DNA of 62,789 nt, counting the filler, from Stramenopiles sp. TOSAG23-6 (lineage: Eukaryota): NCBI GenBank assembly GCA_900128565.1. It is 15 parts of 15 records of this genome, joined end to end, with 100 filler letters (N's around TTAATTAATTAA, not from the genome) between each part and the next. Parts side by side here need not be neighbours in the genome. Positions count along the whole stretch, not along the records: positions 1 to 4,113 come from LT637262.1; positions 4,214 to 8,324 come from LT637263.1; positions 8,425 to 12,530 come from LT637264.1; positions 12,631 to 16,732 come from LT637265.1; positions 16,833 to 20,933 come from LT637266.1; positions 21,034 to 25,132 come from LT637267.1; 9 more parts are not named here. One strand, written 5' to 3'. The notes under the pieces are model-generated. The model made no database searches. It was not told the origin of the DNA and saw nothing but the letters and a program-made list of their open reading frames with translations. The position numbers and the translations under genes are program-made. Shown here piece after piece: positions 1,739 through 25,039 of the stretch (its first letter is position 1; each line of letters opens with the position of its first letter).

Positions 1739-3507
1739 GGCTGGTGCAATTCAATGTTTGTCATTTTTATTAACTTCATTTTCTTCGGCTGTTGGTGTCG
1801 ATACAAATAATTCAACAAGTACAGCAAATGAATCCATTATTATGGATTCACAAATGAAGAAGAAACTAGAGTTACGATTGAAGTTGTATACAATGGTTTG
1901 TACATTTTCATAATGAATTTAAAAAAAAAAATTTTGGTAGAAAATTTTGTACCTAACGAATTTTTTTAAACGATTTTTTTTTTCACAATATATGCGACTG
2001 GGGCATATATCTTCCAGAGGATATGTCAAGGTTTACTGTAGCTCAGGCATCATTACAATTAATTAGTAAACATGTACGTTTTCATGATTCATTTTTACCA
2101 ATTTCGAATTTATTTTTTTTTACCAATTTCGAATTTATTTTTTTTTTATCAATTTCGAATTTATTTTTTTTTCTTTTCCGTATAAAGTTGNTTTTTTTTT
2201 TTTANAAANTTCNCCNCCNAACNAATTTTGAATGTAGCATATTGTCACAATATATGCACATCTCTTCCGAAATGAAATGAAATCTAAAAATGCCATTGAA
2301 AATATATTTCATAGATTGTTAAAATGTTGCCATCATTATAGTAAAAAAACTTCAGATATTGGCAAGTTAGCTTTGAGTGCAGTTTTACACGAAATCTCTC
2401 TCAATTTGATAAAAGAATCGAATTTGGTAGATTCAAAATATTTATTTACATTTTTTATGAAAACATTTGCATCATTTCTTGTAGCTGATTCAAATGGATT
2501 TGATAGAATGATTAAAGTTCATATTGGAGTCACTGGTTTTGATATTTTTGCAACAGCTGTTTCAAAATTTGCACCAGATCAGGTCCCGGGTATCGTTCAA
2601 CAATTATTTCATTGTTATGACAGAATAATTCTACAACATAAAAATAAAAAGAGTGATAATAACCCTAACCATAATACAAAAACGTACCAAAATTTCGTAT
2701 CAAATGATAAAGTAGATGAAAGTAGTACAAATAATGTCAAAGAAGCGAAGAGTAAACATAAATTTGATTTTATTAAAAATCGATGGAGTGTCGCATCACT
2801 AATATTAATGAAATGTGGATGTACGTTTTCAAAATTGAATTTTTTATCTATATTTTTTTTATGGGAAATTGTATACCTAACATTTTTTTTTTTACGAAAA
2901 AAAAAAAAAAAAAAAAAAAAAAATTCACAGTATATATTTATCAGCCATTTCGTCATACTTACAATTTCTATCACTGAAAGAATTAGGTAAGAATATGCAA
3001 CTTCGTATTGAACATATAATTCAAGAACTTATTCTAGATTTTCCGAGTATTCATGAAAAACAAAGAATTCACTTAATTCAAGCTTTATTATGTATGTTTT
3101 CAAAATTGAATGTCTAATTTGTTTTTTCATACGAAATTATATACCTAACAATTTTTACAAAACAAAATATTTTTTCATAAGACATGTATGTTTTCAAAAT
3201 TGAGTTTTTTGAATTTTTTTTTTTCGTACTACAATTTGTACCTAACAAAATAACAATATATATTTTTTCACAATACATCAATATTTGTGTCACTTTTGGA
3301 CAAAGGATGTGTTTGTTTTATTTTTTTTCAAATTCGATTTTTTTTTTTTGGTTTTTATAAAAATTTTGTACCTAACAAATTTTTTTAGATTTTTTTTCAA
3401 AAATATTTTTCCAAAATACATTTCGTGATAAAAGGACAGCTGCTATTGGGTTTTTTCAATTACTTACTTTGAAAAGTAAACACAATTTGGTGGACATTCA
3501 ACAAAAT
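1739..3507 (+). CDS. PRKDC: DNA-PKcs fragment, N-terminal HEAT region (exons 1739-1899, 1994-2073, 2256-2820, 2936-3091, 3279-3308, 3422-3507; partial)
   Basis: LAGAIQCLSFLLTSFS / DMSRFTVAQASLQLISKHA / IFHRLLKCCHH / ELILDFPSI / SIFVSLLDKG resembles recalled DNA-PKcs N-terminal motifs VLAGCLKGLSSLL / DLKRYAVPSAGLRLFALHA / LFEVLLKWCAH / MQIDSFPQY / KVFLALAAKG. Confidence 0.78.
1900..1993 (+). other. Intron, GT-AT
   Basis: GTT T|gtacat...cacaatatat|GC GAC TGG joins in frame to DMSRF. Confidence 0.85.
2821..2935 (+). other. Intron, GT-AT (a CAG 5 nt upstream of the end is not used)
   Basis: GGA T|gtacgt...cacagtatat|AT TTA TCA is open; splicing at the CAG leads to a TGA stop. Confidence 0.88.
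3092..3278 (+). other. Two abutting GT-AT intron units (3092-3185, 3186-3278) with no exon between them
   Basis: Each unit has its own gtatgttttcaaaattga donor, cctaac branch point and 3' box; removing both gives LL-S-IFVSLLDKG. Confidence 0.85.
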
Positions 3508-4113
3508 GTATGTTTTTTTCAAAAAAAAAAAAAATATTTCAATTTTTTTTTTCGTAGTAAATTTTGTACCTAACAAAAAAAAAATATATATATTTCTTNN
3601 NNNNNNNNNNNNNNNNNNNNNNNNNNNNNNNNNNNNNNNNNNNNNNNNNNNNNNNNNNNNNNNNNNNNNNNNNNNNNNNNNNNNNNNNNNNNNNNNNNNN
3701 NNNNNNNNNNNNNNNNNNNNNNNNNNNNNNNNNNNNNNNNNNNNNNNNNNNNTTTTTAAAAAAAAAAAAAAAAAAAAAAAATTTATATTTTTTATTGCTG
3801 TACATTTAAAAAAAACAATATTTCTAACCCTAACCCTAATCAGTTATGTAGAAGTAGTGGAATAATGAAATTATAGCCAAAACCTTTCATGATGCTTTGA
3901 TGTGCTTGTTGTACTTTCGACAATAGCTTTTTTTTATGAACTTTTACTGTTTTTTTCTCTAGTAAAAGTTGCTATTTTAAGTATTGTATAGGCTATATTT
4001 AAGTATCAAATATTGTAATAAAAAGGTTTTCATTCTAGAAAGATTTTTATTATTTTTTCATACGAAAATTTGTACCTAACAATTTTTTTTTTTTTTTTGT
4101 AGTATATTTCAAT

Positions 4114-4213
4114 NNNNNNNNNNNNNNNNNNNNNNNNNNNNNNNNNNNNNNNNNNNNTTAATTAATTAANNNNNNNNNNNNNNNNNNNNNNNNNNNNNNN
4201 NNNNNNNNNNNNN
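4114..4213. other. Artificial contig spacer N44-TTAATTAATTAA-N44 (14 copies in the window)
   Basis: An identical 100-nt linker carrying six-frame stops recurs about every 4.2 kb; flanking contigs decrease in length from ~4113 to ~4072 nt. Confidence 0.97.
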
Positions 4214-6477
4214 TTTCATTATTTTCATTATTTTCATTATTTTCATTATTTTCATTATTTTCATTATTAGTTGTTAGACATGTTTCGTTCATCTCTGCAA
4301 CATCATTTGTTTCTTTTTGTTCAGTTTTATACATGTCAGATTTCGTGTTGTATATATCTTGTGTTTCATTATTATTATTATGATTATCCAAACTGCCAAT
4401 GACGTTACTACACTGTACATTCGATTTTGATTGAAATTGTTTAAAAAAATCTTCTTCCCCAGGATGGAGCCAACGTTCACTTTTACGAGCAATAACGCTA
4501 CATTTTGGATATTTTGGAGTATTTAACGGAGTATTTAACTCTGATGTAACAAACTTCGTTCCTTCATGACACGAAATCTTATTTCTTTTATCAAGTTTTT
4601 CTTGTGCCAAACGTCTTCTATCTTGTTCAGCTCTCCAATATACTACTAATGAAGGTACGTATTTAAAAGCTTGGCTACTATCCACTCCATCACCCACTGA
4701 TAATGTTGATTTTTGACTTATTTCTATATCACTATTCTTTGAATGTAAATTATTTGAATTTTCTATTGAAGTAGTTGGTGGTGTATCAAATTCTCTAGGT
4801 GAGGAAGATTTGGTACGAAATTTCGTACCAAATCCACCAAAACGTCGGAGTCTTCGATTTTGAATCTTTTCTGCAATAATGTCAAATTCTACAACACAAT
4901 TTGACGTTGGACAAAAATTGAATACATTCTCATTTGAAGCATTTGAAATATTTTCATGTTTTTTCAAATGATTTTGATTTGTTTGATTGGTTTGCTTAGG
5001 GTTAGGGTTACTTAAATCTACACCCTCATCTTCAGTGAGAGAAAAATCAAAGTCTTCAATATTTATGTATTTTGGAAAAATATTTCAAAAAAATCCAAAA
5101 AAAATTGTTAGGTACAAAATTTCGTACGAAAAAAAAAATCGATTTTTTTGTAAAAAAAAAAATAAAACATACATACCTCTAAGAATAGGATGAACTTCTG
5201 TTTTAGGGTTAGGGTTAGGATGAACTTCTGTTTTTGACTCTAGCGCAACACTTTGTGAAACATTTGTACCAATGTTTGTATCGTTTTGTATATTAGGGTT
5301 AGGGTTTTGCATTTTTTTTTGAACAGGTTTATGTTCAATGCAAGATAATTCATGTATTGTAGGAATATATACATATATTTTTTAGTTTTTTTGTTAGGTA
5401 CAAAATTTCGTATAAAAAAAAAATCTGTAAAAAATTCATTAGGGTTAGGGTTAGGAAAAACGTACGTGTGCTTCAACTTCTTTATACGTACCAATATACC
5501 CACAATTAAATTCACATTCATGTATTGCGAAGATAAATCTCTATATATGTATACATAAATTTGTTAGGTACAAAATTTTGCGAGGAAAAAAAAATAAGAT
5601 AAAATATTCAATTTTGAAAACGTACATATATCATCAAATGAGAATCACTCGCATCATGAGGGTTAGGGTTTGCATCATTTACCTTTTTGTTATCTAGATG
5701 TTTTTCATCAATATTTGCATTTATATTTTTTGATTCTTTTGTACTTTTTGTAGTACATGAAGTCTGTATTGACTCTGTTGACATTAAATGTAATTGGTTA
5801 GAGGAAGAAGAGGCCTCAGAAATATCAACTTGCTTCTCAATACCAGAAATAAAACTTTCCTGCCCAAGATTAATGTTATGATTACGAAAACAAATATCAC
5901 AGAGGTTTAAGTGGACATAACCCATTCCAGAAAGGCTATAATCAGCTAAAAACTGATGAATATATGGAACATGTGACTCAAATGGAAGAAACCTAAACGA
6001 TTTTCCATGCAATGAGACTCCTGTCGATGCACGTTTTGAAACCTTTTTCACATCGTCTGGGTTTCGTAGAGTGACGAGCAGAAACCAGCTAGGTTCATGA
6101 TAGCCATAGAAATTTATACGACGAACAAATTCAATATCAATGACTTCACGACCAAGTTGTTTAGTACGTCGGAGAGCAGAAATTATTTTATTACGCGAAA
6201 CTTCTTCACTATTACCAAATTCATCGAATAATTCCTGTGGACATTGCAAATAGAAATATGGTTTCACGCCATGTATGTGTACTACTGCTTTCTTTCCATC
6301 CGATGTTGCCCCATATACTCTTATTACAGGCGCAACCAATTCTTTTAATCTATACATTTTGGAAGAAACATCCTCAAGTAAAACCTCTTCACCTGTTTGT
6401 GTGTCCATCATATAGTGTTCAAGGTACAGCAGTTGTACAGTGTACAACGAAGACGCTTTCAATGATGTCTCACTCAT
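4214..6477 (-). CDS. REV3: DNA polymerase zeta catalytic subunit, N-terminal part (exons 6477-5626, 5519-5466, 5351-5173, 5064-4214; 3' truncated)
   Basis: PVIRVYGATSDGKKAVVHIHGVKPYFY, FYGYHE and FESHVPYIHQFLADYSLSGMG are REV3 N-terminal motifs; three GT-AT introns (5520-5625, 5352-5465, 5065-5172) restore the frame. Confidence 0.85.
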
Positions 6478-6775
6478 ATTCCTTCATACAGTGTATTACT
6501 CGAGATATTATTCAAACATAGCATCAAAAATCAAGTATGATAACCTTTATCAAAATCCTAAAGCTAGAAACATAGAATGTATAGATTTATTAGAAGTTTT
6601 GGTTATAAAAAGAGTACGAGGAGGTACACATGTTTATTCGAAAAAATTGACTGAATCAGGAGAAATCAGGAGTGAAAAAAAAAAACACAAAACGCATAGT
6701 ACATAGTACAATACAATACAATAACGTATAAAGCATCACATCATATATGCTATAAAGAATACTTTTTTTTTATTA

Positions 6776-7620
6776 CTACAACCCGCCTAGCAATCTTTTT
6801 TCTGCTACAAACTTTTTCCTTATCGCTTTTGCGTTTGCAGATTCAAATTCAACTGGAAAAAATTTATTCGCATCAGCAGTTAATTTTTTAATATCATCCA
6901 CTCTAGAAAACTGACTAGCAATGTATTTTGGAAAAATATTTCAAAAAAAATCTAAAAAAAAATGTTAGGTACAAAATTTCGTATGAAAAAAAATTCGATT
7001 TTTTTGTTAAAAAAAAAAATAAAACATACACAGCTTTCATCAATATATTGATATCATCAGGTTCTACTTCGGCATAGAGATTACGCATATATTGTAAAAG
7101 AATATTTTCAAAATTTGATTTTGTTTTGTTAGGTACAGAATTTTTGAAATAAAAAAACAAATAAATTCGAAATTCATGAAGAAACACGTACATTGCATTC
7201 AAAAGAGCTTTGAGTGCATCAGCTCGTTCAGACTCCAATTTTGTTCGTAAAGTGGATAAATCAGTGTAGAGAGTTTTTGGGATGCATTTTGAAAGAATCT
7301 ATCAAATTTAAGTTTTAGTTAGTAGGTATAGTAGATATGGAATGTGCTACAAGAAAAAAAATTAAAGTACAATATTGTTAGGGTTAGGGTTTGTTGTTAG
7401 GGTTAGGGGTAGAAAACATACATAATATCCAGAGCTTTTTCTGGAAATATCTTCTTTGCGTGTTTAAGGAGAAATTGAATATCTTCAAGAGTTGGTATTT
7501 CTTCATAAATTCCTTTCACTATGCCTTCAATAGACTCTATTTTAATACAATCAAAATATAATACTCTAAGTTTCAACTCTAACTCGGCTTTAAGTTTTTT
7601 CTTTTCATTTTCTCGCCTCA
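6776..7620 (-). CDS. Unknown helical protein C-terminus (exons 7620-7422, 7281-7192, 7086-7030, 6920-6776); either a PI3K extension or a separate mis-joined gene
   Basis: Open frame across GT-AT introns 7282-7421, 7087-7191 and 6921-7029 to a TAG stop; two similar ~70-aa helical units. Confidence 0.6.
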
Positions 7621-7738
7621 ATGTATTTTGGAAAAATATTTCAAAAAAAAAATCTAAAAAAAATTGTTAGGTACAACATTTTTTTACCAAAAAAAAAAAA
7701 AAATCGAATTTCGAATTTAAAAAAAAAATAAAACATAC

Positions 7739-8212
7739 ATTATCAATTCGTCTTGTTATGTCACTGATGGCATTATCAATCAGCTTACGAAACCATTCAC
7801 GTGCCTCTTTTTCAGTAAGCTCTAGTTGCAGCATTTCCCGCATAAACTCTAAATCTCTCTGACCACAGAGCTCCGGTAATTGCATGCACTATGAAAAAAT
7901 ATTAAAAAAAAAACTCGTTAGGTACAAAATTTCGTACGAAAAAAAAATGAATTTGAAATTCAATATGAGAACCTACATCGGAATAGCCATTGAAAATAAA
8001 TGTAAAAGAACTCGATGAGAGCGGCGTGCAAGAATAAAGGCATTCAGTGCCAAATCAGCAAATTCTTTCAACTTTTCTGTGCCAGAGCTTCCAGCAGATA
8101 TAGCAGAAACCATTCCAGGATCAAGTACAAACCTACATCTTTCACGTCGATATCCTTTCATTGCCATTGTTGAACCGAGAAAATGTCCAAAATCAATATG
8201 AAAAAGCCGACC
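7739..8212 (-). CDS. Phosphoinositide 3-kinase (class I-like), C-terminal part of kinase domain (exons 8212-7977, 7883-7739)
   Basis: GRLFHIDFGHFLG...RRER.RFVL...LFSMAIPMQLPEL...LELTEKEAREWF. Intron 7884-7976 must end in AT; using the upstream AG frameshifts LPEL. Confidence 0.88.
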
Positions 8213-8424
8213 ATGTATTTTGGAAAAATATTTCAAAACAAATCTAAAAAAAATTGTTAGGTACAAAAATTTTTTTTTCCGTAAAAAAAAAAAAAATAAA
8301 TTCAATTTCAAATTTAAAAAAAAANNNNNNNNNNNNNNNNNNNNNNNNNNNNNNNNNNNNNNNNNNNNTTAATTAATTAANNNNNNNNNNNNNNNNNNNN
8401 NNNNNNNNNNNNNNNNNNNNNNNN

Positions 8425-9373
8425 GGTTGTCTGCCAAGTCCAACCAATGGAGATTTGTTAGTTGACCAATTTGATTTGGTATTGGACCAGTTAGGTTGTT
8501 CCTATACAAGTACAATTTTTCGAGATTTGTTAGTTGACCAATTTCTTTTGGTATTGGACCAGTTAGTTTGTTGTTTCTCAAGTTCAGATGTTTGAGATTT
8601 GTTAGATGACCAATTTCAGTTGGAATTGGACCAGATAGTTTGTTGCCAGACAAGTACAATTTAGTAACACTTCCTTCAGTACACGTAACTCCATACCAGT
8701 CACAAATATCTGCATTTGTTTTCCAATTTTGTTTATGCTCCCAAAAATCTCCCTTTGTATTATCATACAATAAAGTTAAAGCTTCTTTTTCCAATAACTT
8801 ATTATGCATATCTTCTTGACGCCTTAGCCATTCGTCACAGGTTTCGTTTTCCATTCTTGTGAGGTTGGTTATTTTTACGTTGAGGCGTTTAAAACTTTCA
8901 AAAAACATTCTATACATTCTGTTTATTCTCTTCACACGGTATAGCCACTTCAATAAAGGTTCATCTTGTCTTTGTTTGGTGAGTTCTTTCATTTGATCGG
9001 TAAGTTCTTTCATTTGATTTTCTTCAGTGGTGTTTTCTCGAAATATTGCGACAAGTTTCGTTATCAAGTTATTTGCTTCTTGCTTAATATCTTTACTGAT
9101 ATTCTGATATATCACAGTATTTGTAGCAGAAAGAGACGATATGTCNGACGGAGTAAGAAATTGTCGTCTTAGNTGGCGCATCGTATCAGCGTTATCCGTG
9201 AACTGTTGCTCACCAACAGATTGATTTGCAAGACTATCAGCAGTAGTAGAAACATGGGGTCGTTTAGCGAGAGGGGTTAGGTTTTGTGAAGCATTGACAA
9301 GAGAAATCAACATTAATAGTAATATGAGAGAAGTGCATGGAGTGAGAAAGATTGTCATGATGTTCTCTTTCAA
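8425..9373 (-). CDS. Secreted or receptor-like LRR protein (3' truncated)
   Basis: Hydrophobic N-terminus, LRRNT-like CDWYGVTC, and repeats LxxLxLxxNxLTGPIPxEIGxL; no introns. Confidence 0.85.
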
Positions 9374-9577
9374 TCAAAAGTAATACCTTTATGTTTGTAT
9401 CAATTAGGTCAAACGGCTAGTTCCTAAGTCAGCTGACAAAATAGCACAAACCTGTTACAGACATATTTTTTTTGACAGTAACTGTTTCTTCTTGTCAACA
9501 GTTACTCGTTACAAGGATACTTACAGCGACATCCGCGAACATTTTGGTTTTGCTTGAGCAGCACCAAAGCTGTATCG

Positions 9578-11356: not shown

Positions 11357-11398
11357 ATTATTCATTTGAGTCTAGTACAAAATAAATTGAATTTCCTT

Positions 11399-12438
11399 TT
11401 ATTTTACATCTTGCATAAAACCTAATTTTGGTTTTATTAAAACATGCTTAATTTTCTTCTGNATCTTTTCAATTCTTTGGATGAAATGTAGCTGGACATT
11501 TCCTCTAATATCTAAAGTTTCCAAATTTCCAGAATACTCCAACATCTGTTCCTTTTTTTTAAATATATACAAATGTATCAAANTTTTACATCCAATAATT
11601 TTTAGATGTCGCATTTTGTTGAAAAATTTTGCACCACGAATATAGTAATTGTCTTCTGAGTAAAGTTGCTTTCCATCAGAGATCCAACCAGTTTCTGTAA
11701 AGGANGAGCAATTCTTTATAATTAATGTCTCTAACTGCATAATTTTACCGGGTGGATCGATTAATTGATCCAGTGTTTCNTCGTAAGTTCTATTCCATGG
11801 CCATGATTTTTCTTTAAATTTGTTGAATATTGCTAAATCTTTCTTTGGCTGAAGACCTTTNAGACTTTTTAAGTAATGACACTCTTCTATCCTCAACACT
11901 TTTAAAGCTTTACAATCAATTATACANGATAAATCAACAAGATAATTCATTCCATGAAAATGTATCTTCCTTAGTTTATTCAATTGTTTCAATATTTGCA
12001 ACTTCTTTTGATCTAATTGACAACAATTTGTTATAATTAAAGTTTCTAAATTGTGACAAACTGAAAGAACACCAATATCGACTAGACACCTTGCTTTGTG
12101 AATACAAAGTGAAGTTAGACTAGACACTCCGGATAACCACAAAGGTAGCACTGACAGTGACCAACAATGATTTAGTGTAATAGACATTTTAGTCATTTTC
12201 TTTATCGAATTCGTTTTTATTTATTGTGAAAAACATTTATTTTTAGACTTTTCGTTAGGTACGAAATTTAGTACAAAAAAAATTGAAATTCAATTTCGAA
12301 AACGTACATTATCTTCATTTGGTTTCGAGGATGACTTTCTGCTGAATGAATAGTTTGCATAAAAGTATCTTGCAATGACCTTTGCCCTATAATATTACCA
12401 TATCCATTCCAACCAATAGTAGATTCTAGTTGAACATC
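11399..12438 (-). CDS. LRR protein, C-terminal part (exons 12438-12308, 12218-11399)
   Basis: LETLIITNCCQL / LKVLRIEECHYL repeats; GT-AT intron 12219-12307 restores the frame. Confidence 0.75.
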
Positions 12439-12715
12439 ATGTATTTTAGAAAAATATTTCAAAAAAAATCCTTAGGTACAAAATTTCGTATGAAAAAAAA
12501 ATCAAATTTGAAAAAAAAATAAAACATACANNNNNNNNNNNNNNNNNNNNNNNNNNNNNNNNNNNNNNNNNNNNTTAATTAATTAANNNNNNNNNNNNNN
12601 NNNNNNNNNNNNNNNNNNNNNNNNNNNNNNTTGGAAAAATATTTCAAAAAAAAATCGTTAGGTACAAAATTTCGTACGAAAAAAAACTTCATACAAAAAA
12701 AAAATAAAACATACA

Positions 12716-15700
12716 TCTAACAAAGAAATAAATGTTTCATAAATGCATTTCCTTTCAGTTTCACTAACAGTAGTCGCTGAAGCATCTAATTCCAACGAAG
12801 ATAAACTAGATAGCACAACTTGTACAAGAGTGTCCGTGGTTGCAGTGCCGCCTGTATCCTTTTCATTTGATGAAGAGATATAATTTCTATCATCATCTTC
12901 AATATCGAGTTGAGACGTGACTTGGCGTACTCTAGCAGATTGAACTAAACCTTCAACCATCTTTACACTTTCATCAGAACGCACAGTAGATGGAGATGCT
13001 TCAAAAGCAGCAACTAATCCCTTCAAAGCTGCTTGGGCTAAAGGCTTGCGAGGATTACTATTTTTGTTATTAGCAATATCTGAAAGAATCTTAAAAATTC
13101 TTGTCCATGTTGTGACAGGTAAGGGCGAAACGAAAACGTCCTTAAATAACTTAAAAAAAACCTTCTCAAAAGGAGTTATGCGGTCGTATTTCAGTGCAAG
13201 AGAAACAGCTGATTGTGGATATAATTTCACACAAGCAAAATGTTTTCTTGAAGTAATTATCCTCATTTCACTCAAAAGATCCAACAGAGAATCTACAGTA
13301 TTCCCCCGCCAACATGAGTGATATTGTAACTCTCGGGCATGTACAAACGTTTTTGCAATGGCATTCAACAATGCACAAGCAACTTTTTCGTGTTCATTTT
13401 CAACAACAGAAGGACATAAACATATTTTTTTAAAGGCATTCCATACATGTTTTTGTAATTGAATCCAATGTTTTTCTTCCAACTTGGGTGTATTTAAATT
13501 TGTAACAATTTTATCATCCACGCATTTATTTTCTTCTAGATGATCATTTGAAACAATGTCTTCTATAGGAGATCCATCAATGTCGACATTTACAAGTGCA
13601 CCATCAACAACACGCATGCGTTCTGTGATATCGCCTCCTTCAGATTTAATTGTTTGACCACAAAGAGCTGACATCAAAAACATTTCTTGAAGAACATTCA
13701 CTGCAGCCAATTCAACCTCAAATGTATCCGATGTAGTACTCTTCTCCTGATTACCTCCTTGTAAAATAGCAATTTCTGCAGCACTTATTAAATGTTTCCA
13801 TGAGCTTAATAACCATTTTTGATGCAATTGGGAATTTTCTTGCTTTAACCAAAGTGATGTAAATATTTTTTTGAAAATCCGCGTCACACCATTCAAACAA
13901 ATAACTGTTGTTTCATACCATTGTTTTTCAGCAGTATCTCTTGTATGATGCATTAAGATATGGACTTTTTCACCAGAACGAGTTCGACCTAATTCTGCTC
14001 CCTGTACCTTACTATCCGTTGCTGCTGCACATGATTGCGAACGTTGTATTTCAGACAATAAAGGTAATAAACAATTCATAAAACAATGCTCCCAACATGA
14101 CAATGAAAAAACACTTCCAGAAGAAATAATTATATTAATGAGAGTTCGCAAAGCACAATTTCTGACTTCTGGGCGGGAGTCTTTTGATATTCGACTCAAT
14201 TCACCAAACAAAACAACCCACAACCCATTCATCTCCAGATTGAAATCTTTTACTATAATTGTAGGAGACACAATGACATTACTGTGATTATTTTTTAACG
14301 CAATTTTGGGGGAATGATTTGTGTTGCAAGTATTTTTCGGTGCTACTTTTTGCTTGATAAAATCCGCAGCAGTCCAAAATGTATTGATTGCAGTGAGTGC
14401 CACATTTATATCACCACGTTGATCACCATAACAACCTAAACAAAGTAAAAATTGAAGCAGTGCATGTATTTGTAAAGTACCTAAAAAATCATCAGCAATA
14501 AGATTAAGAGATTTAAATCCAATACCTATTTCAGAATCACGACTACCACCCGAGACATAGATATTTTCACCGCTACTATACGGCGAAGGAATATATTCTG
14601 GTACAGTTTCAATATCTACTGCCGGAGCACAAATAATCTCCATTGCGGGTGTCCAACCATCACTAATCACATCACCACAATTTACTAATAGTTGAAATAA
14701 ATCTTCAAGGACTCTCTTTTTAGTATCTACATATTCTGTCTTAAACATTTGCTGCAAAGTTCGTAGCATTTCACTTTGTCTTTTTCTAGGAATCGGATAA
14801 TTATTGTACTTTACATTGTTATTATTATCTGTATCCTTTTCTTGATCTTTCATATTAATATTGTTATTACTATCTGTATCCTTCTCTTGATCTTTCATAT
14901 ATAAAAGAGAATATTTTATTAATTCCGTTAGAGATTTCGTGGCAAACTCCCGTTTTGCTTTAGAACTAGACGATGCACATACCAACAAGTGTTCTTTTAT
15001 AATTTTCCACCAAATTGGTTCTAACAAACGAAAAATATTTTCATTTGCGACATCAATTAGTCTTTTAAAACCAAAGGAAATATCCTGTGGATAAGCTCTA
15101 CCTTTGACACGTTTTAAGACCATATTTGCATGAATAGATAAAGATTCCACTGCACTATCACGCTTTCCAATAAGTTGTGTCACACTAGCAGTTTTATATA
15201 AATTCCGTGCATGTGTTCCAATTATATTTGACACGGATAAACCAACTGCTGATGGAGAAAACGTCGATGATGACATTGATGCCCCAATCGAACTATTTTG
15301 TACAGTTGAGGAAGGTGGTAGTCCTTTTGATGTAGTACTCTCGACCCCAAGGCCTTCCATCGCCTTTTGTCTCATTCGTTGTAGTGCGTTTATTCTCGAA
15401 CTCTTTTCATTAACTACCTTTGATAAATTACGAAAAAATATTTTAAAATCGATTTTTTTGTTAGGTACAAAAAATTCGTATGAAAAAATAAATTGGAAAT
15501 TCTTGATGAAAACCTACATGTATCAACACTTAAAACATTTTTAGGTGATGTTTCTATTGTTGTCATGTCTATAGATATATTTTCCAAGTTTGATTTTACC
15601 GAGAGAGAAACTAAAGCAGTAATAAGAGATTGTAGAGCATCATCATTTATGGATTTACTTGAAATAAACAGTTGTTCCAATTCATTCAAAAATAGATTAA

Positions 15701-16675
15701 ATTCTGGATCAGTTCCTTCTAATGACTTAAGCATGTTAGAAGAATATACAATTTCAATCTTTTCATATACACTTAATAAAAACTCCCAATCATCTCCTAA
15801 TACAGAACTTAAATTTCTTCCAATACTTAACAGAGTTTTTGCTGACTTGACATGTTTCAAAGAAATTTGACACCATCCGTCATCATCCACGAAATCTTTG
15901 CTTAATGAAACTATCTCCCTCAGATGATCATCAACGGAAAATTTTTGAATTCTTTCATGTAATACTACAGGTTGCCATTGTTTAGGTAATGAAAATATTG
16001 ATAAAACAGTTACAAAAGCATTAAATGCTTCACTGTGACCCAAGTGTTTGCAACAACAAGAAAACATCTCGAAAGATTTCAATATTTTTTGCATTAATTC
16101 TATATCTGTACATACAAGCAGTGTGAAAAAATATTTCTAAAAGAAAAATTGTTAGGTACAAAATTTACTATGAAAAAAATTGAAATCCGTGATGAAAACA
16201 TACATGCAATAATGGAGACAGAGCAGCTAATGCAGGTTTCCATAAAGCTCGGATTATAGCATGTAGATCATCTTTTGTAGCTGTAATTTTAGTACTATTA
16301 TTCTCTACATTATTATTCAATTGATTCCACATGGAGCTCACTCGAGACATTAAAGAAAGAAAAGAAGATGCCGCCCACACTACTTGTGTACCACAACTAG
16401 CACACGTATATGTATTGTAAAAAAAATATTTCAATTTTTTTTACATTAGGTACAAAATTTTGTACGAAAAAAAAATTCCAAGTTGAAAAAAATAAACATA
16501 CATAGACTATTCGTATTTGTAATTCCACTTTGTCCAAGAATTATTGATTGGTCACTAAATTCTACGTAGCAATCGGAAAAGTATTCATCCCTTTTCTGGT
16601 TTTGATTAAGAAAAGACTGATAACTTTTCAACTCAGATGTTGTACAATTTTTTAATTGTGTGCGTATAAAATTAG
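12716..16675 (-). CDS. MON2: MON2 (endosome-to-Golgi trafficking), internal part
   Basis: DINVALTAINTFWTAADF, DSRPEVRNCALRTL and ILMHHTRDTAEKQWYET are MON2 hallmarks; introns 16410-16501 (GT-AT), 16116-16203 (GT-TT) and 15423-15517 (GT-AT). Confidence 0.9.
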
Positions 16676-16910
16676 ATGTATTGTGAAAAAATATTTCAAA
16701 AAAAAATCGTTAGGTACAAAATTTCGTACGAANNNNNNNNNNNNNNNNNNNNNNNNNNNNNNNNNNNNNNNNNNNNTTAATTAATTAANNNNNNNNNNNN
16801 NNNNNNNNNNNNNNNNNNNNNNNNNNNNNNNNTTTTAATTTTTTTTTTCATACGAAATTTTGTACCTAACAAATTTTTTAAATTTTTTTTTAAATATTAA
16901 ACAACAATTT

Positions 16911-18482
16911 ATGAATGGGCAATGTTACAATGGCAAAGTTAAATCTTGAAACTTGTGTGACATTTGCACCTGATGATGAAAAGTGTACTAAAATGCTACG
17001 AGTAATGACAAAACTGGACAAAGAATGGAAAGCTGCGGTACTTTGAAATATTTTTTGAAATTTTTTTTGACATTTTTTTTTCGTACGAAATTTCATACCT
17101 AACAAAAAAAAAAAAAAAAAAAATTTGAAATATTTTTCTACAATTTTAGAAAGCTGCAGAAAGTTCAAATAATTGGAAACTTGCAATTTATCATTTGGAA
17201 ACATTTTTAAATATGCCAGGTTTAGGTACCGGGTTTCCAATTATTCATAAAACACGACATTCTATCAATGAAAAACAGGAAAAAAATCATTCAAGTCAAA
17301 AGACAAAAAATAACCCTAACCCTAACCCCAACCCTATTATCCCTAAAATGCCAAAACATATTCAAAAAATCGTAACTAGACGAATCTGTACGGCATATGG
17401 ACGTTGGAGCTACTTACCTGCTCTTGGTTCAGCTGCTCATAATTGTACGCGAGCATTACGCCATGCAACAAGTGCAATGTATGGCCATCAAGAAGACGCA
17501 CGAAATGTTGGTACGTTTTTTTTTTTTTTTTTTTTTCATACGAAATTTTGTACCTAACAAATTTTCAAATTTTTTTTTTAAATATTTTTCACATGATTGC
17601 TGTTGATGAACGCATTCCAGTAGCTGAACTCTTTCTTGCTCGTTCATGGACAAGATTAGCACGTCGTTTATGGTCCAAAACTAGACAGGATTTATCAAAT
17701 GCTAAAAAATTACTTGCATGGGCGAACGATGATTATGAAAATTTAATGTCCTCTTCGAATCAATGGCGAGTTAATGGTGGATATTCAAAATATTCTGAAA
17801 AAAATTCTGAAAAAAATTTTGAAAAAAATTCTGAAAAAAATTTTGAAAAAAATTCTGAAAAAAATTTTGAAGAAAATTATGATGATTCACAACAGAAACA
17901 AAATGAACTTCGTACTTTATCAAATCTTTTAGATTTCCGATTACAATTTTTAGAAAAAGAGACAGATCGTCTTGAAGAGGAAGCAGAACAAGAAGAAGAT
18001 ATGTGTGTTTTATTTTTTTTTTTTTACAAAAAAATCGAATTTTTTTTTTCGTACGAAATTTTGTACCAAACAATTTTTTTTAGATTTTTTTTGGATTTCA
18101 ATTTTTTTTTTGTATAGAATAGTATGTACCTAACAAATTATTTGTTTTTGAATTTTTTTTTACAAAATTGGCATCGTTAATTGCACAATCTGAATTTAAT
18201 GATGTGTCCAAGAAAACGGTAGAAACTTTAGTCAATGCAGAAGAACAAGTAAACTTATTTAAACATCGAATACAGCGTACGTTTTCATTATGAATTTTTT
18301 ACCTAAATATTTAATTTTTTTTTTTTTTTTTATAAAAATTTTGTACCTAACAAATTTTTTTAGAATTTAATTATTTTTACAATACATGTCTGATTTTATT
18401 GAGCAATAAATACGAAGTTACAAAACGTAAATCATCTAAAACAATGCTTGAATATATACGACACAATAAAAACAATTTGTAG
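16911..18482 (+). CDS. TPR protein, DNAJC3/P58IPK-like, C-terminal part
   Basis: AKLNLETCVTFAPDDEKC.KMLR TPR-like motif; introns 17038-17149 (GT-AG), 17511-17599 (GT-TG), ~18003-18170 (ends uncertain) and 18277-18387 (GT-AT). Confidence 0.55.
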
Positions 18483-18639
18483 TAAATCATCTAAAAAAAA
18501 AAAAAAATTGCGTCGGTTTATATTTTATTTATTTTGTTGAACTTTTAAAATAATAAAACACAAAGTTTTTTCAAAATTTCAAAATTGAATATTCTATTTT
18601 TTTTTCATACGAAATTTCGTACCTAAGGATTTTTTTTTC

Positions 18640-20904
18640 TTATGAAACATTTCGAACACGTTTACAAAATTCCATATGAGCTGGCCAACCCAATTTATGA
18701 CATTGACCTTTACAAAATCTGACCTTTTTACATGCATGTATTGGGGAAAAATATATATTTTTTTTTTTTTAAATTTTTTGTTAGGTACAAAATTTCGTAC
18801 GAAAAAAAAATAGTTAAAAAATTGAAAAAAAGTAAAACATGCACAGCGTTTAATTGTAGATTTATGTCCCCAAATTTTACAATAATGACATTGAACTTCA
18901 CCTTTATGATTTCCATGTAATGTGAAAAAAATGTAAAAAAAAATTTACATTTTTGTTAGGTTCAAAATTTTTATAAAAAACCAAAAAAAAAAAAATTAAT
19001 TTTTTTTGAACATTTGAAATAATGAGAAACAAAAAATTAAATTTTTTTTGTTTTCTATGAAAATTTCGTATGAAACCAAAAAAAATATTTTTAATTTTTT
19101 TTGAACATTTGAAAATAATGAGAAACACATACATGATATGCTGCATATTCAGCTAAACGTTTTTGTTTCTCAGTTTCAATATCGCCCTTCTGACACGTGT
19201 CATCACTTTGACACGTGTCATGATCAATCATTTTGTTTTTTTTTATTTGTACTTGTATTGTATCATTTTGTTGTTGTTGTTGTTGTTGTTGTTGTACACC
19301 ATTAGGGTTAGGGTTTGAAGGCTCAATAATACAACGATTTGGTTCATTATGATCAATTCCAATCATTTGTTTTTGAGATTTTTTTTGAGATTCAGTAACC
19401 CTAACCCTAGTACTATGTTGTAAATATTTTTTACAATACTTTTGTATAATACTTGCAGCCCAATTTTTTTCAAACATTCCCAAATCTTTATCAAATGTTT
19501 TTTCTTCTCTATTTTCATTTTCAAATTCATAATTTTGTTCATTAGGGTTAGGGTTTGTCTTTTTTACTGTTTCATTCAAATTTAAAATTATATTTTTATT
19601 TATACAGACTGTTGTTTTTGTTGTCTTACCATCATTATTTATATGAAATGTTAATAATTCATTACAGTTTTGAAATTTTTCTAAGAAATTTTTAATGATC
19701 TAAAGTGTGAAAAAATATTTTTTTTTTTTTTTTTTTTTGGTTAGTACAAAAAAATTTTTTTTTTTTTTTAATTTACAATTTTTGAAACATACATTATTTT
19801 TATGAATTTTTTGTGTAAGCCACTCAACAGATTTCTTCATCATTTCAGGAACTACAAGTGAACCTACAAAACAAGGATACAAATTATTGTCTTGATTTGC
19901 AATGATAATTTTTGGTGTATTTTTTGTTATATACAGCATTGCATTATAATCAATTTTTACTTCTTGAAAAGTTTCCATCAAAAAAACACGAAAAACATCA
20001 TTTTTTAAAATTTGACCTTCTTCACCACGAAATATTTCTTTTGTAAATAATTTGAATGGCATTCCTTTTTTCTCATCATATATTGTAGAATTTCTATACA
20101 TTGATGATATGTCCAAAATTTTTTTTGTAATTTTGTTTTGTAATTCAATTATTGACTTGTCCAGCATTTCTTTTGCAATTTTGTCATTCTCATTCTCAAG
20201 CCAAAAATATTCCGCAGAACATTCTGTACCTAATGGAAACAAATTAAGTATTGACTTTTGAAGAATATCATGTTTGAACTCTTCCCAAGGTAGCCAAGGT
20301 AGGTTTAGGGTTTGTTTGAGATTTTCATTTTGATAATTTTGATTATGTTGATAATTTTGATTTTGTTCATTAGGGTTAGGGTTTATGCCGGGTGGTGGAT
20401 ATGATAAAGGGTTAGGGTTTATTTGTACACTTGATTCAATATCCAACATTGGCATCATCTCCTGAGTGTCCTGAGTATCCTGAGTTATAGTAGAAATATT
20501 ATCAGGTACTACTAACCCTAACCCTAATGAATCATCATTACACCCTAACCCTAATGAGTCATCATCAATTGTAGCACCTGTAGCCGACGAAGTGACATCT
20601 CCTACAACAATTTGTGGTCTTTGTGGTATTTGTGGTATGGATATTGGTGAATTCACTGCTGCTTCATTCGGTGTACCATGTAGTATACTACTAGGGTTAG
20701 GGTTACTAGTAGATTGTATTTCTTTTTGTACATCTAGGGTTGGGGTTTGTCTCATTTGTTTTTGGTCATTATCAGACAAATCTGCTTTTCCTTGAGTATT
20801 TCGAATTACATAATTTTGTTTTATAATCTCAGAAGCTGCCGTTTTTGAAATATTTTCATACTTTCCTGAAAAAAATTCAACTCGTAACAAATCTATACGA
20901 TATT
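18640..20904 (-). CDS. IQ-motif and MYND zinc-finger protein, C-terminal part
   Basis: Splicing yields CHYCKIWGHKSTIKRCACKKVRFCKGQCHKLGWPAHMEFC (MYND) and AASIIQKYCKKYL (IQ-like); introns 19700-19792, 18915-19132 and 18736-18842; stop TAA at 18640. Confidence 0.8.
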
Positions 20905-21114
20905 CATATTTTGTGAAAAAATATTTTTTTTTTNNNNNNNNNNNNNNNNNNNNNNNNNNNNNNNNNNNNNNNNNNNNTTAATTAATTAANNNNNNNNNNN
21001 NNNNNNNNNNNNNNNNNNNNNNNNNNNNNNNNNCAATTTTTTTTTTCAAAGTTTTTTTCATAGTAAATGTTGTACCTAACAATTTTTTGAATTTTTTTTT
21101 TTTCAACAATATAG

Positions 21115-22044
21115 GTGAAAGTCTTATCAATGTCAGTATTTCAGGTTCTACTGATGAAAAACAAAGTTATGTATTGCATTCGAATGATTTGAAGTTTGAT
21201 TTAGATACATTGGCTTTAAAAAAGAAAAAACGTCGTTTGAAAAAAAAGGGAAAAAAAGATGAAAATGTTGATGAAAAAACTGAAAATGATGTTGAAAATG
21301 ATGGTGAAAATGATGAAAAAGCTGAAAATGATGATGAAAATGATGAAAATGTTGATGAAAAAACTGAAAATGTTGAAAATGATGTTGAAAAAAATGATGA
21401 TGAAAAAAATGAAAATGATGATGATGAAAAAAATGATGATGCTGAAAATAATGATGATGAAAATAATGATGAAAATGATGATGAAAAAACTAAAGGAAAT
21501 GAAGTTGACACGAAACATTTAAAACAGGTTTGTACACTAATGATGGCACGAAATGGTAAAAAAGTTCTTTCAAATATTTCTGGTTTTTACAAAGATGTAT
21601 GTTTAAATTTTTTTTTTTTATTTCACAATTTTTTTTCAATTTTTTTCAATTTTTTTTTTCGTACGAAATTTCGTACCTAACAAAAAAAATGTAAAAAAAA
21701 AAAAATATTTCTTTACAATATTTATTACAAGTCATACATTACGAAAAAAGTTGTGCTACACGTGGCAAACTGTCTGTCATCAACCAGCGAGACCAAAATT
21801 ATTGAAACGTGAAAAATGTTTGGTTAAATTAATTAAAAATCTCCAAAACAAAGATTTTACAAATGTTGAAAAATTGTTGGATTGTGCAAAAAAAATTCCA
21901 AAAAAAAAGAAAAGTAAAAGCAAAAGTGAAAAAAATGATGAAAAAAATGATGAACAAAATAAAAACAAAACTGACCAAAATGAAGAAAAAGATGAAAAAG
22001 ATGATGAAAAAGATGATGAAAANGATGAAGAAAAAGAATTGTAA
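21115..22044 (+). CDS. Acidic low-complexity protein, C-terminal part
   Basis: D/E/N/K-rich exons joined in frame by GT-TT intron 21597-21723. Confidence 0.65.
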
Positions 22045-22257
22045 CCTCTCTTTTTTCTTTTTTTGTTAGGTACAAATTTTTGGTACAAAATTTATTTTGT
22101 ACACATTCAATTTTTTTTTTATTCAATTTTGAAAATGTCTGAATTTTTTTTTAAATAAAAAAAATTAAAAAAAAAAAGTAAAACATTCATTGATGTTTGT
22201 TTGTTTTTTTACATAAGATGTCGATCGATGAAGTCAATCAATACCGATTGCTTTTTT

Positions 22258-22328
22258 AGTTAGTACGATGAAAATTGAAAATTCTTCTACAATTTTGTAC
22301 CATTTTTTTTTTCATTAAATTTTGTAGC

Positions 22329-22364
<36 letters not shown>

Positions 22365-25039
22365 GTAAATTTTTTTTTTTTTTTTTTTTTTTTTTTGGTA
22401 GAAAATTTCATACCTAACTAAATGTTTTTAATTTTCTTGAAATATTTTGTAGAATATAGATGTTGTTGGATGGACTAGACTGAACGATTGTTTTGATCAT
22501 CAAGTAGCTGATATAACGCCATATACAATTCTTGCAGTATTACATATATGTATATACTTTTTTGCTCGATTTGAGGCGTCATTTGCATTTTGTGTATGTT
22601 ATCCATTAGGGTTAGGGTTACAATTTTATTTTCGTAGGAAATCGTGTACCTAACTGTTTTTATTTTTTTTTGAAATATTTCTTCACAAAATATGCACTTT
22701 TATACATTTCTTGGGTTTGTATAGATTTCACTTATACTGGTAAAACAATTAATCAACAGATATGGCAAGGAATATGTATGTTTTATTTTTTTTTTCACAA
22801 AAAAATCGAATTTATTTTTATAAAAAATTTGTACCTAACAAATTTAAGTTTTTTTTTTTTTTGAAATATTTTTCCAAAATACATCATTACTTCTTGCATT
22901 TGTGTGTGGTTCTTTCGTAGATGATGTTGATTATTTATCAAAACAAAATGGATCTATTCAAAACCTTCCTGCAAATCTGACGTCATCATTTTTCAATGAG
23001 GATGCAGCTTATAATTATGCCCAAAATAAGTATGTTGTACGATATTTTAGTGATTTCAGAGCTGTCATTATTCTTGTTCTTCATGCAAAAGACAAAATCT
23101 TTGAATGCATTACTATTGTTGGCTCTACATTGTTTGGAGTATTTCATTATTCCATTGTTACGGAATTATTCAAATATTTTGCTTGTACGTTTTTTATGTG
23201 AACCCAATTTTTTTTTTACGTTTTTTTTTTTTACGTTTTTTTTAATGTTTTTTTTATGTTTTTTTTAATGTTTTTTTTATGTTTTTTTTTTGTTTTTTTG
23301 CAATGCAAAACAAAAATGTGTACCTAACAAATTTTGCAAATGCTTTGAAATATTGTATCAAAGTAAATGTTTAATTCCAATTTGTTTAGGACTTTCATGG
23401 ATACATTGGAGTACAAAAAGATCTCACAGACTTTCACGAAAAAGAGCATGTATGTTTAATTTTTTTTCAATTTGGAATTTTGTTTTTTATAGTAAATTTT
23501 GTACCTAACATTTTTTTTTTTTTGAAATATTTTTCCAAAATACATTTATTGCAACTACAGAATGTATGAATAGTCGTGAAAGTTTTTCGACTGTGATGAA
23601 GGATGTTCCCGTGTACCTGAAATTTCCAAACGCTGCTGAACAGTGGCTCGAATCTTCTGCGTGGCTTCAGCAATTATTAAATATGATGTGGCCGTTTTTA
23701 CGTCCATGTATCAATCAGGCAATTATAGCTAAAATTGACCCATTGCTTGATTTTTCAAAACCTAGTTTTATTACAAAACTTTGGATTGATTCACTTGATT
23801 TAGGATCAACTCCTCCAGCCCTCGGAGGAATTGCTGGAGGAAATAGACCTCCTCTTCGTGATCATGAATATGATTCACCTGTAATGGATATTGACTTAGA
23901 TCTTGATTGTAAAAGTGTACGTTTTCATTTCAATTTTTTTTTTCAAAGTTTTTTTCATAGTAAATGTTGTACCTAACAATTTTTTTTCAAATTTTTTTTT
24001 GAAATATTTTTTCACAGTGCATGATTTTCGCTTTGTTATAGGTGTGAGATTGTCTACCGGTGGTACTTTACGTTTTGGTGCAACAAAACTAGGTATACGT
24101 GGTATGCTGCGACTAGCAATGACGCAGCATAAGTTATGTGGTTCCGGTTTCCAAGCGCTTGACATCTCATTTACAGAAAATCCAATACTTGAATTAGGTT
24201 TATTTCGTACAAAGAAAGGATCTTTGACGAGCTCTTTGACTGGTCCAATCATGTCATTCCTTCAAAGAGATTTAGTTGCTATTCTTGCAGCAAAGATTGT
24301 ATGTTTTGTTTTTGTATTTTTTTTTGTATTTTTCTTTTTGTATTTTTTTTGTATTTTTTTTGTATTTTTTTTTCTTGTTTTCTAACAAAAAAAAAAAAAA
24401 AAAAATATTGTACACAAGATATGTATACCCCAATCAGTATCATTTAGATTTGGAGTGGGTAGAGGATGAACTAGGAAAGAACATGGATGAAGAGACAATT
24501 GAAAATGTGAGAGGCTCATTAGTAGTTGACATTGTGAAAGGAAATCATGTACGTTTTTTTTTACATTTTTTTACATATTTTTTTTTATAAGAAATTTTGT
24601 ACCTAACAAATGTTTGAATTTTTGTTTTGAAATATTTTTACACAATGCATCTAAGGGTCATTGGAGGGCAGAATCCTTTAAAAGCTAAAAAAAACTGTTT
24701 TTTTTGTAAAACTTCTGTTCAATCCAAAAAGTATATTTCAAGTGTAGTCCAGAATTCAAACCAGCCAGTATGTATGTTTTATTTTTTTATTTTTGAGCCT
24801 TAAAAAAAATCGATTTTTTTTTTCATACGAAATTTTGTACCTAACAAATTTTTTTGAATTTTTTTGAAATATTTTTCCAAAATACATGGAATCAAAAAAT
24901 AGAATTTCTGATTCAGGATATTACTACTGCAAATTTAACCGTTGAAATTTGGAACCATAATAAGAAAGGAGAAGATATTTTGATTAAAACACTTCAATTT
25001 CCTCTAAAATGTCTTGACACTTCTCCTTTTGTAGAGTAT
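22258..25039 (+). CDS. Extended synaptotagmin/tricalbin-like protein (TM segments, SMP domain, C2 domain; 3' truncated; start uncertain)
   Basis: ESSAWLQQLLNMMWPFL...SLDLGSTPP (SMP), AKIVYPN, and NQPVWNQKIEF (C2) are restored by eight GT-AT introns from 22594-22693 to 24772-24887. Confidence 0.85.

Follow-up and report, generated by a model that had tools for sequence, protein, structure and literature searches.

A family of introner-like introns with predominantly AT predicted 3' ends in Stramenopiles sp. TOSAG23-6

Introduction

The terminal AG is the most constant signal of eukaryotic introns; U2AF reads it early in splicing, and the catalytic core reads it again in the second step. How a 3' splice site is chosen where this signal is missing is the question raised by a stretch of DNA from Stramenopiles sp. 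TOSAG23-6 (GenBank assembly GCA_900128565.1), in which many unrelated genes carry copies of one short intron element whose predicted 3' end is, in most cases, AT. The whole stretch, referred to here as the window, has a length of 62,789 bases and comprises 15 contigs of about 4.1 kb each, ordered by falling length and joined via N44-TTAATTAATTAA-N44 linkers, i.e., six-frame stop linkers across which features are not readable. It is AT-rich (GC content 22-37%) and includes two pairs of almost identical contigs (16833-20933 with 54541-58617, and 42000-46083 with 46184-50263). An initial annotation of the window proposed that the intron end is measured by a ruler from a conserved box, that nearby AGs are skipped, and that the final dinucleotide is relaxed.

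Anatomy of the Intron Family

The family was found by listing every CCTAAC on both strands, nearly all of which lie within copies of one short element in sequence bearing open reading frames (ORFs). Curation yielded 47 non-redundant copies, in which the first G of the 5' motif was taken as the donor and the base aligned to the last T of the tail as the acceptor. These copies occur on 12 of the 13 non-redundant contigs, measure 75-218 nucleotides (nt), and interrupt many unrelated genes, including REV3-, PI3K-, MON2-, SMP/C2-, PH- and U-box-like ones. From 5' to 3', a copy is made up of GTATGTTTT or GTACGTTTTCA, a variable T/A-rich stretch, TTTTCGTACGAAATTTTGTACCTAAC, a variable spacer, GAAATATTTTT, and a tail that reads CCAAAATACAT or CACAATATAT. 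The corresponding signals are a 5' site T|GTAYGTTTT, a branch box TACCTAAC, a T run, and a CA-rich tail with the consensus CA[C/A]AATA[C/T]AT. GT opens 44 of the 47 copies, and the 5' site is conserved at 98% (G1), 96% (T2), 96% (A3), 91% (G5) and 96% (T6), following an exon with T at -1 in 87% and A at -2 in 68% of cases. A CTAA[C/G/T] branch motif, mostly inside GTACCTAAC, is found in 46 of the 47 copies; the branch A lies 31-62 nt from the intron end (standard deviation 6.5), and the T run at positions -11 to -16 is conserved at 64-94%. The GT start with a GTRNGT-like consensus and the yeast-like branch motif followed by a pyrimidine tract are features of U2-type introns, while the 3' terminal AG of that type is mostly absent.

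The predicted termini are GT-AT in 32 copies, GT-AG in 8, GT-TT and GT-TG in 2 each, and AT-AT, GA-AG and GC-AT in one each. In total, 34 of the 47 copies end in AT and 9 in AG, so that 38 are non-AG. The relaxed dinucleotide of the initial annotation is mostly a single change: 43 copies (91%) retain the A at -2, and the last base is T in 36 (77%) and G in 11. The last three intron bases are CAT (21) or TAT (12) in 33 of the 47 copies, and the same triplets close the upstream exon in 20 (10 CAT, 10 TAT). AG-ended copies carry their G exactly at the position of the final T of the others (e.g., 30021-29896, 28781-28888, and 42777-42667). One AG-ended copy and the three copies with variant donors are:

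19700..19792, minus strand: AG-ended family intron, CACACTTTAG, in frame as GT-AG, its end 14 nt after the conserved box, like the AT ends
28013-28110, plus strand: variant donor ATACGT (AT-AT), in frame
42667-42777, minus strand: variant donor GAACGT (GA-AG), in frame
18736-18842, minus strand: variant donor GCATGT (GC-AT), in frame

The counts support a 3' end that is defined by something other than AG. Besides the 38 of 47 copies that do not end in AG, 23 of these 38 lack any AG up to 12 nt to the left or right of the end, and for 21 of the 38 a search reaching 9 nt from the donor and 18 nt from the acceptor gave no GT/GC-AG pair in frame. Examples of introns lacking a nearby AG are 237-330, 24772-24887 and 25786-25899.

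Evidence for the Junctions

The position of the 3' end was assessed by a reading-frame test with the donor fixed at the family G. Long ORFs flank 31 copies unambiguously, and in 26 of these the frame calls for precisely the family-aligned end (binomial p 1e-8); the same applies to 22 of the 26 copies in the non-AG subset. The observation is therefore real and well beyond chance at the level of the reading frame; the mechanism discussed below is what we infer from it.

At four junctions, one in a PI3K-like kinase gene and three in an SMP/C2 (extended-synaptotagmin-like) gene, support for the family-aligned end extends to single residues of the protein. The introns concerned, together with a further SMP/C2 intron, are:

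7884..7976, minus strand: intron of the PI3K-like kinase gene, GTAGGT...GTGCAT, with a TAG 5 nt before the end
23917..24022, plus strand: intron of the SMP/C2 gene, GT...GCAT, in frame, with a CAG 5 nt before the end
24299..24422, plus strand: family-like intron, GT...GATAT, with a TTCTAAC branch box, in frame, with an AAG 4 nt before the end
24549..24650, plus strand: family intron, GT...TGCAT, with GC at -4,-3, which excludes AT-AC termini
24772..24887, plus strand: family intron of consensus subfamily A, GT...ATACAT, gap-free against homologues

In the PI3K-like gene, the exon upstream of 7884-7976 maps to residues 772-849 of chain 7bi4_A and the downstream exon maps from residue 852 onward, beginning at its own second residue; the split codon plus one residue fill positions 850-851 and leave no gap. 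In the SMP/C2 gene, removal of five consecutive family introns gives one open frame of 367 residues, the product of which was aligned with nine homologues taken from a representative search. The junction of 24299-24422 is gap-free against all nine and lies in a conserved V-x-P-N stretch, that of 24549-24650 is gap-free at the start of the C2 domain, and that of 24772-24887 falls inside the C2 motif N-P-x-W-N, where the W codon is split T|GG. The junction of 23917-24022 lies in a variable loop, where the homologue alignment is too variable to separate the family end from a pair formed by the CAG and a GT located 2 nt upstream of the family donor.

Contigs from RNA runs were aligned to one contig of the window, 16833-20933, on which their coverage of exons is thin. 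A single feature there bears on a junction:

16833..16912, plus strand: 3' part of a family intron at the contig start, ending CAATTTAT, at the boundary of an RNA contig

The RNA contig in question, 235 nt long, covers 16913-17040 with 1 mismatch and extends by 106 letters that are absent from the genomic contig. Its boundary coincides with the predicted AT acceptor 16912|16913, as a splice would give, with the upstream exon lying outside the window. This boundary lends weak support to the AT acceptor and is the sole RNA evidence for the junctions. As a separate observation, the family core at 16833-16969 reaches summed word depths of 13,882 and 22,768 in two seawater RNA runs, compared to 0-15 in most exon bins. 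The family, or its relatives, is thus very numerous in those libraries, the source being pre-mRNA, excised introns or DNA carry-over.

A Local Tail as the Probable 3' Signal

The explanation that we consider rather probable is that these are introns of the major (U2) spliceosome, belonging to one recent introner-like family, in which the 3' site, Y-A-T or Y-A-G, is chosen by the local tail. Cleavage would occur after the last T of the CA-rich tail, 31-62 nt beyond the branch A, at a site that would be Y-A-T and less often Y-A-G, the A at -2 being kept and U replacing G as the last base. The exact bond would be selected by local tail sequence within a window of about 9-12 nt past the T run, and neither by scanning for the first AG nor by a strict count from the AAATATT box; presumably, some factor reads the tail. 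Ordinary introns with T-rich YAG ends also occur in the same genome, which, together with the AT ends of the family, implies a machinery that accepts both. In structures of late-stage spliceosomes, the 3' site forms two base pairs, one between its A at -2 and the branch A and one between its G at -1 and the G at +1 of the 5' site. A conserved -2 A next to a relaxed last base fits this pairing.

A more far-reaching version is that the major spliceosome of this organism has gained a second 3' specificity, Y-A-U at about 10 nt past the U tract, which is preferred over AGs only 4-5 nt away, and that the spread of the introner has turned most introns into GU-AU introns. It would represent a lineage-wide shift of the most conserved intron signal, with yeast-like 5' and branch signals retained. 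We regard this as a tentative proposal and would currently lean against it.

Several observations limit the evidence for GT-AT introns with a 3' site defined by the tail, or weigh against them. The tails of the introns are often free of stop codons, so that acceptors at +/-3n nt stay open by frame alone, although the frame class is nevertheless a strong test. Five of the 31 copies do not fit the family-aligned end, two needing +1 and three needing +2. Three of these misfits (3092, 3309 and 5625) are, in our reading, artefacts of the frame test caused by short exons or tandem copies; for the other two (7738-7621 and 31325-31236, minus strand), the family rule breaks the frame and no explanation was found. 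No spliced joint across any intron was seen among the RNA contigs on 16833-20933, the 15 joints listed there all being between repeat copies; stretches without coverage speak neither for nor against splicing. Pfam searches with the exons that flank the introns with TT and TG ends gave no usable match, and hence no homology support at those sites. The assembly is fragmentary, with many single Ns, and single-base errors are possible. Furthermore, an in-frame GT/GC-AG pair exists within the search range for 17 of the 38 non-AG introns, in 10 cases with the same donor. For AGs at 5 nt from the end, the frame is recovered by a donor shifted 2 nt upstream, which at 23917 gives a canonical GT-AG intron and adds one residue. 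Finally, exon end and intron end share at least 2 bases in 25 of the 47 copies, usually AT or CAT, and the mature messenger RNA (mRNA) therefore fits GT-AT, TG-CA or AT-AC termini alike.

At 7738, the PI3K-like ORF would normally soon end, so that the element may separate two genes there, or the gene may be fused or misassembled.

Origin and Spread of the Element

The presence of many near-identical introns in unrelated genes suggests that the family is introner-like and has recently multiplied. An alternative view of its 3' rule starts from this origin: the copies would be DNA transposons, comparable to introners derived from miniature inverted-repeat transposable elements (MITEs), with a short target-site duplication (AT, or CAT|G), and the 3' rule would be the element's own end. 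We give this view a little less than an even chance; as it concerns origin, it can be combined with a 3' site read from the tail. It draws on the near-identity of copies in unrelated genes and on the junctions themselves, both of which read YAT|G, with AT closing the exon in 30 and the intron in 34 of the 47 copies. The element also starts with ATGTAT and ends with ATACAT, a short inverted repeat that amounts to a 6-nt terminal palindrome only. Further points in its favor are tandem copies, six-base self-repeats in the exon that follows two of the introns, and copies outside ORFs:

3092..3278, plus strand: two introns head to tail (3092-3185 and 3186-3278) with no exon between; joint removal keeps the frame
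16116-16203, minus strand: first six intron bases, GTATGT, repeated at the start of the downstream exon
18736-18842, minus strand: the rare start GCATGT repeated in the same way
about 18560-18640, plus strand: partial copy outside ORFs (3' untranslated region or intergenic)
about 22030-22190, minus strand: partial copy outside ORFs (likewise), antisense to the neighboring gene

The six-base repeats have an estimated chance of ~1e-4 and do not occur in other copies; they may be the footprint of an insertion or of a lost neighboring copy. However, a duplication specific to each pair of junctions is not detected among the 47 copies (mean shared length 1.49 observed versus 1.39 with shuffled 3' ends, p 0.22), and no association exists between AT at the exon end and AT at the intron end (2x2 table 23, 11, 7, 6), 11 introns being AT-ended after exons that do not end in AT. 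Neither an empty site nor a transposase was seen. The six introns that were folded lack a long terminal inverted repeat and their RNA is not significantly structured (6/6 with z -1.3 to +0.4 against shuffles), without the pairing of intron ends that is found in some other families; a hairpin that would bring the two ends together was dropped as a candidate, since folding is no better than for shuffled sequence. Spread by a short target-site duplication, or by reverse splicing into YAT|G junctions, is possible.

Four longer introns (159-218 nt) contain two copies of the branch box or duplicated family segments:

28528-28695: double-box or duplicated-segment intron
50561-50719: double-box or duplicated-segment intron
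18003-18170, plus strand: double-box or duplicated-segment intron
18915-19132, minus strand: double-box or duplicated-segment intron

For the third of these, the in-frame end is 18169 and not 18170.

A Possible Ruler From the Conserved Box

A true molecular ruler, as suggested by the initial annotation, would require a factor on the AAATATT/T-run box that sets a cut at a fixed distance downstream, whatever the bases found there. When the box is defined as the 7-mer A[AT]ATAT[TA], it is recognized in 36 of the 47 introns, and the end follows it by 14 nt in 26 and by 13-16 nt in 31 of these 36, which equals about 11 nt after AAATATTTTT. The near-constant distance is therefore confirmed as an observation. 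Its explanation is another matter: the last 22 intron bases, comprising box, T run and end, form one module with 55-94% conservation per position, while the exon bases that follow are not conserved. With box and end in a single conserved module of a repeated element, a fixed distance is expected from common descent alone. In three copies, one-base insertions or deletions in the T run separate the two possibilities. These copies end 13 nt (17511) or 15 nt (16501, 17038) after the box, all in frame, and the junction tracks the CA-rich tail, or an AG in the case of 17038. Counting strictly from AAATATT therefore fails. In tails ending TATAT, moreover, it is the second TAT that keeps the frame and serves as the end, and not the first, which implies that some base-specific reading is needed. 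Retention of the A at -2 in 43 of the 47 copies likewise counts against a ruler.

The ruler is favored by the four copies with a diverged tail (17599, 16116, 21723 and 15423), all of which need the aligned position by frame; the terminal dinucleotide is thus not the only cue. They include the TT and TG ends on which the initial annotation had drawn:

16116..16203, minus strand: intron of the MON2-like gene, TT case, ending CACACTGCTT, in frame
17511..17599, plus strand: TG case, ending CACATGATTG, in frame; box-to-end distance 13 nt, the T run being one base shorter
21597..21723, plus strand: second TT case, ending TACAATATTT, in frame

The 3' ends quoted in that annotation, CACACTGCTT at 16116 (minus strand), TACAATATTT at 21723, CACATGATTG at 17599 and CACACTTTAG at 19700 (minus strand), are correct, and the frame does require the aligned position in the TT and TG cases. 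The first of them, however, can be re-read: at 16116, intron and next exon both start with GTATGT, so that a 4-nt slide gives GT-AT termini and the same mRNA. At 17511-17599, a TGTTG direct repeat flanks the intron, and with the family donor neither an AT nor an AG end would be in frame. The tail at 21723, TACAATATTT, differs from the TACAATATAT tail of other copies at -2, where A is changed to T.

Two further points speak for the ruler, namely the AGs 4-5 nt upstream of the end that are bypassed in five introns, given the family GT donor, and the behavior of a divergent U2AF2 paralogue of the larvacean Fritillaria borealis, which, expressed in HEK293T cells, induced 3' sites and cross-linked to the RNA at 6-20 nt upstream of them (PMC13326754). 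On balance, a ruler in the strict sense appears unlikely. What stands of the original proposal is that AG is not the cue; the constant distance reflects a shared module, within which the junction follows the tail.

Register of Cleavage

Another reading places the register off by 2 nt, so that the introns would be AT-AC introns (of U12- or U2-type), running from the AT before GTAYGT to the ATAC of the tail, and the variable dinucleotide would belong to the next exon. With the donor moved 2 nt to the left, the first dinucleotide is AT in 30 copies, TT in 7, GT in 4, and six others once each; the last is AC in 21, AT in 15, TT in 4, GC in 4, and three others once each. AT thus closes 30 of the 47 upstream exons and AC occupies -4,-3 in 21 introns, and where both are present the mRNA is identical in the two registers; A at +1 with C at -1 is, moreover, an accepted terminal pair. 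However, by our count the two conditions coincide in about 15 of the 47 copies, and AT-AC splicing is flagged in frame in 11 (10 of the 38 non-AG introns). In 17 copies the exon does not end in AT, which makes AT-AC termini impossible; these include the well-supported introns at 23917, where the exon ends in GT, 24299, 26102 and 7029. The termini are also far less regular than in the GT register, with its GT in 44 and its -2 A in 43 copies. U12-type introns have a 5' motif [A/G]TATCCTT and a branch motif TCCTTAAC about 10-15 nt from the 3' end. The 5' consensus found here, GTAYGTTTT, is without TCC, and the box ACCTAAC sits 31-62 nt from the end. An AT-AC register is accordingly improbable, and cleavage at GT and AT, instead of at a slid register giving the same mRNA, seems the better account.

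Bypassed AGs and Canonical Sites

An AG lies between the branch box and the end in 17 of the 47 introns. Its distance from the branch A is 13 nt in six of them, where it is part of a conserved TTTTTTTAGA, and in five (2821, 3092, 23917, 24299 and 7976) it stands 4-5 nt before the end. Use of these AGs with the family donor would shift the frame. Two introns have, in addition, been discussed with respect to AGs in their surroundings:

2821..2935, plus strand: family intron ending CACAGTATAT, in frame, with a CAG 5 nt before the end
15423..15517, minus strand: family intron, GTAGGT...AATTTAT, in frame; an AAG 5 nt downstream would shift the frame

The positions of flanking AGs in the initial annotation are accurate: a YAG is found 5 nt upstream of the end at 2935 (CAG), 7884 (TAG) and 24022 (CAG), and an AAG 5 nt downstream of 15423. 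Its statement that each of them would give a stop or a frameshift applies when the family GT donor is used, but shifted donors restore the frame at 24022, 7884 and 2935; at the latter two, the donor 2 nt upstream that pairs in frame with the YAG is AT. It also left out of account an in-frame CAG 9 nt downstream of the 2821 intron and an in-frame TAG 9 nt downstream of the 15517 intron, both with the same donor, the latter giving GT-AG termini. In the PI3K-like gene, the gap-free junction argues against a shifted pair at 7976, although a one-residue insertion would be compatible with the protein. The bypassed AGs are probably truly unused.

That splicing is canonical, via nearby GT/GC-AG pairs with shifted donors or acceptors, the AT ends being an artefact of aligning repeat copies, is highly improbable: AG ends are clearly used in the genome (9 of the 47 copies) and in-frame pairs exist in 17 of the 38 non-AG introns (including 23917, 2821 and 15517), but 21 have no such pair, 23 have no AG within 12 nt, the PI3K junction and three of those in the SMP/C2 gene align without a gap at no positions other than those of the family, and the fit of 26 of 31 frames at one fixed position would be left unexplained.

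Relation to Known Introns

The nearest described case is provided by the introns of larvacean tunicates of the genus Fritillaria. There, the 3' end is AT in 34% of the introns of F. borealis and in 44% of those of F. pellucida, which makes it the commonest end. Introns are closed by Y-A-Y, which often precedes the 5' site as well, a U-rich tract is kept, and the major spliceosome is used; the main classes are AG/AC and AG/AT, with 5% GT/AG (PMC13326754). A divergent U2AF2 paralogue of F. borealis induced 3' sites when expressed in HEK293T cells (PMC13326754). The likeness consists in AT as the commonest end, in a U-rich tract, and in CAT or TAT at the close of the intron (33 of 47) and of the exon (20 of 47). 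In contrast, 44 of the 47 introns of the window start with GT in a strong GTAYGT and have a near-invariant TACCTAAC branch box. Moreover, the gene content of the window (plant-type leucine-rich repeat proteins and others) suggests a protist and not a tunicate.

Introners, or introner-like elements, have reportedly been found in Micromonas, Aureococcus, dinoflagellates and fungi. The present family resembles them in comprising many near-identical short introns in unrelated genes, with their own splice signals and an apparent recent expansion, but 38 of its 47 ends are non-AG, and it showed neither a clear duplication of the target site nor inverted repeats of any length. The introners of Micromonas and Aureococcus are mentioned in a paper on the introner elements of Amoebophrya (PMC7789003). 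These elements, as well as the introns of euglenids and hemistasiid diplonemids (PMC12621601), are described as having no conserved terminal dinucleotides and as relying on inverted repeats of 8-20 nt or on G/C-rich pairing of their ends (PMC7789003, PMC12621601). They share with the present case the setting in marine protists, a non-GT-AG majority, repeated families, and short direct repeats over the boundaries; they differ from it in that the present introns combine a strong yeast-like 5' site and branch box with folding no better than in shuffled sequence. A diplonemid origin was dropped for a related reason, since the published diplonemid introns are G/C-rich at their ends and without a branch motif (PMC12621601).

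AT-AC introns, whether U12- or U2-type, likewise accept non-AG 3' ends and have extended conserved signals, and AT-AC termini would be possible for about a third of the copies; their 5' motif and branch-to-end distance do not fit, however, and most copies are unreadable as AT-AC. In the intron-poor Giardia and Trichomonas, the branch and 3' site motifs are fused, and the branch point lies at a fixed short distance from AG. The likeness here is a long conserved motif at the 3' end of the intron with the 3' site at a fixed place within it, whereas the distance from branch to end varies over 31-62 nt in the present family and the end is AT. Elimination of DNA in the manner of ciliates was dropped as well, as it appears unlikely where the genetic code is standard, repeats of the TTAGGG type occur and the spliceosomal signals are strong. 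A literature search, judged by titles and the openings of abstracts, gave no description of a GT-AT intron class among the papers listed, and a search for the motif strings of the family returned primer matches only.

If the tail does define the 3' site, the organism would have hundreds of near-identical introns with textbook 5' and branch signals yet AU ends, and with the AG-ended copies as built-in controls. Such a set would be a clean system to study site choice at the second step and the tolerated relaxation of the last base with -2 A kept. The family bears on how introners spread and bring along their own splice signals. In practical terms, annotation software that insists on AG would disrupt almost all genes of the organism.

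Genes and Other Features of the Window

Eukaryotic genes recognized by Pfam include the N-terminus of REV3/Pol delta, MON2, COG5, U-box plus Sel1, PH, and EF-hand; a PI3K-type kinase gene is also present, and the family assignment of the MON2 exon was confirmed by an Atlas look-up. Two contigs are particularly rich in family introns:

contig 4214..8324, minus strand: REV3-like and PI3K-like genes with ten family introns
contig 21034..25132, plus strand: two genes with about twelve family introns

An Rfam scan of the window found no family, small nuclear RNAs included. Protein searches with the SMP exon (longer proteins) and with COG5 returned no homologues. A HMMER scan of representatives gave 106 matches, the best being a fragment of 79 amino acids with 64% identity, and no close relative or transcript of the same species among them. 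A metagenome scan with a 19-nt intron core hit 2 loci, both chance matches in unrelated sequence. Of the words sampled from 12631-20933, 6-12% are present in five seawater metatranscriptome runs.

In contrast to the intron-dense genes elsewhere, positions 38297-41947 (plus strand) hold an intronless single ORF of 1,216 codons, which encodes a cysteine-rich repeat protein.

Hexamer repeats of the telomere type, (TTAGGG)2-3, are scattered across the window in both orientations, for instance at 3829, 4997, 5204, 5294, 5440, 7379, 7398, 17315, 19303, 19400, 19543, 20371, 20517, 20544, 20692, 22607, 33245, 43892, 45369 and 50547, among others. Outside the duplicate contigs, 23 ten-mers of the TTAGGG type were counted, compared to 0.04 expected from shuffles. 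Four of the repeats are in introns and most lie within long ORFs, where they read N-P-N-P, L-G-L-G, R-V-R-V or L-T-L. One contig from the RNA runs (20452-20876) crosses three of them without a gap, so that the repeats are present in RNA as well.

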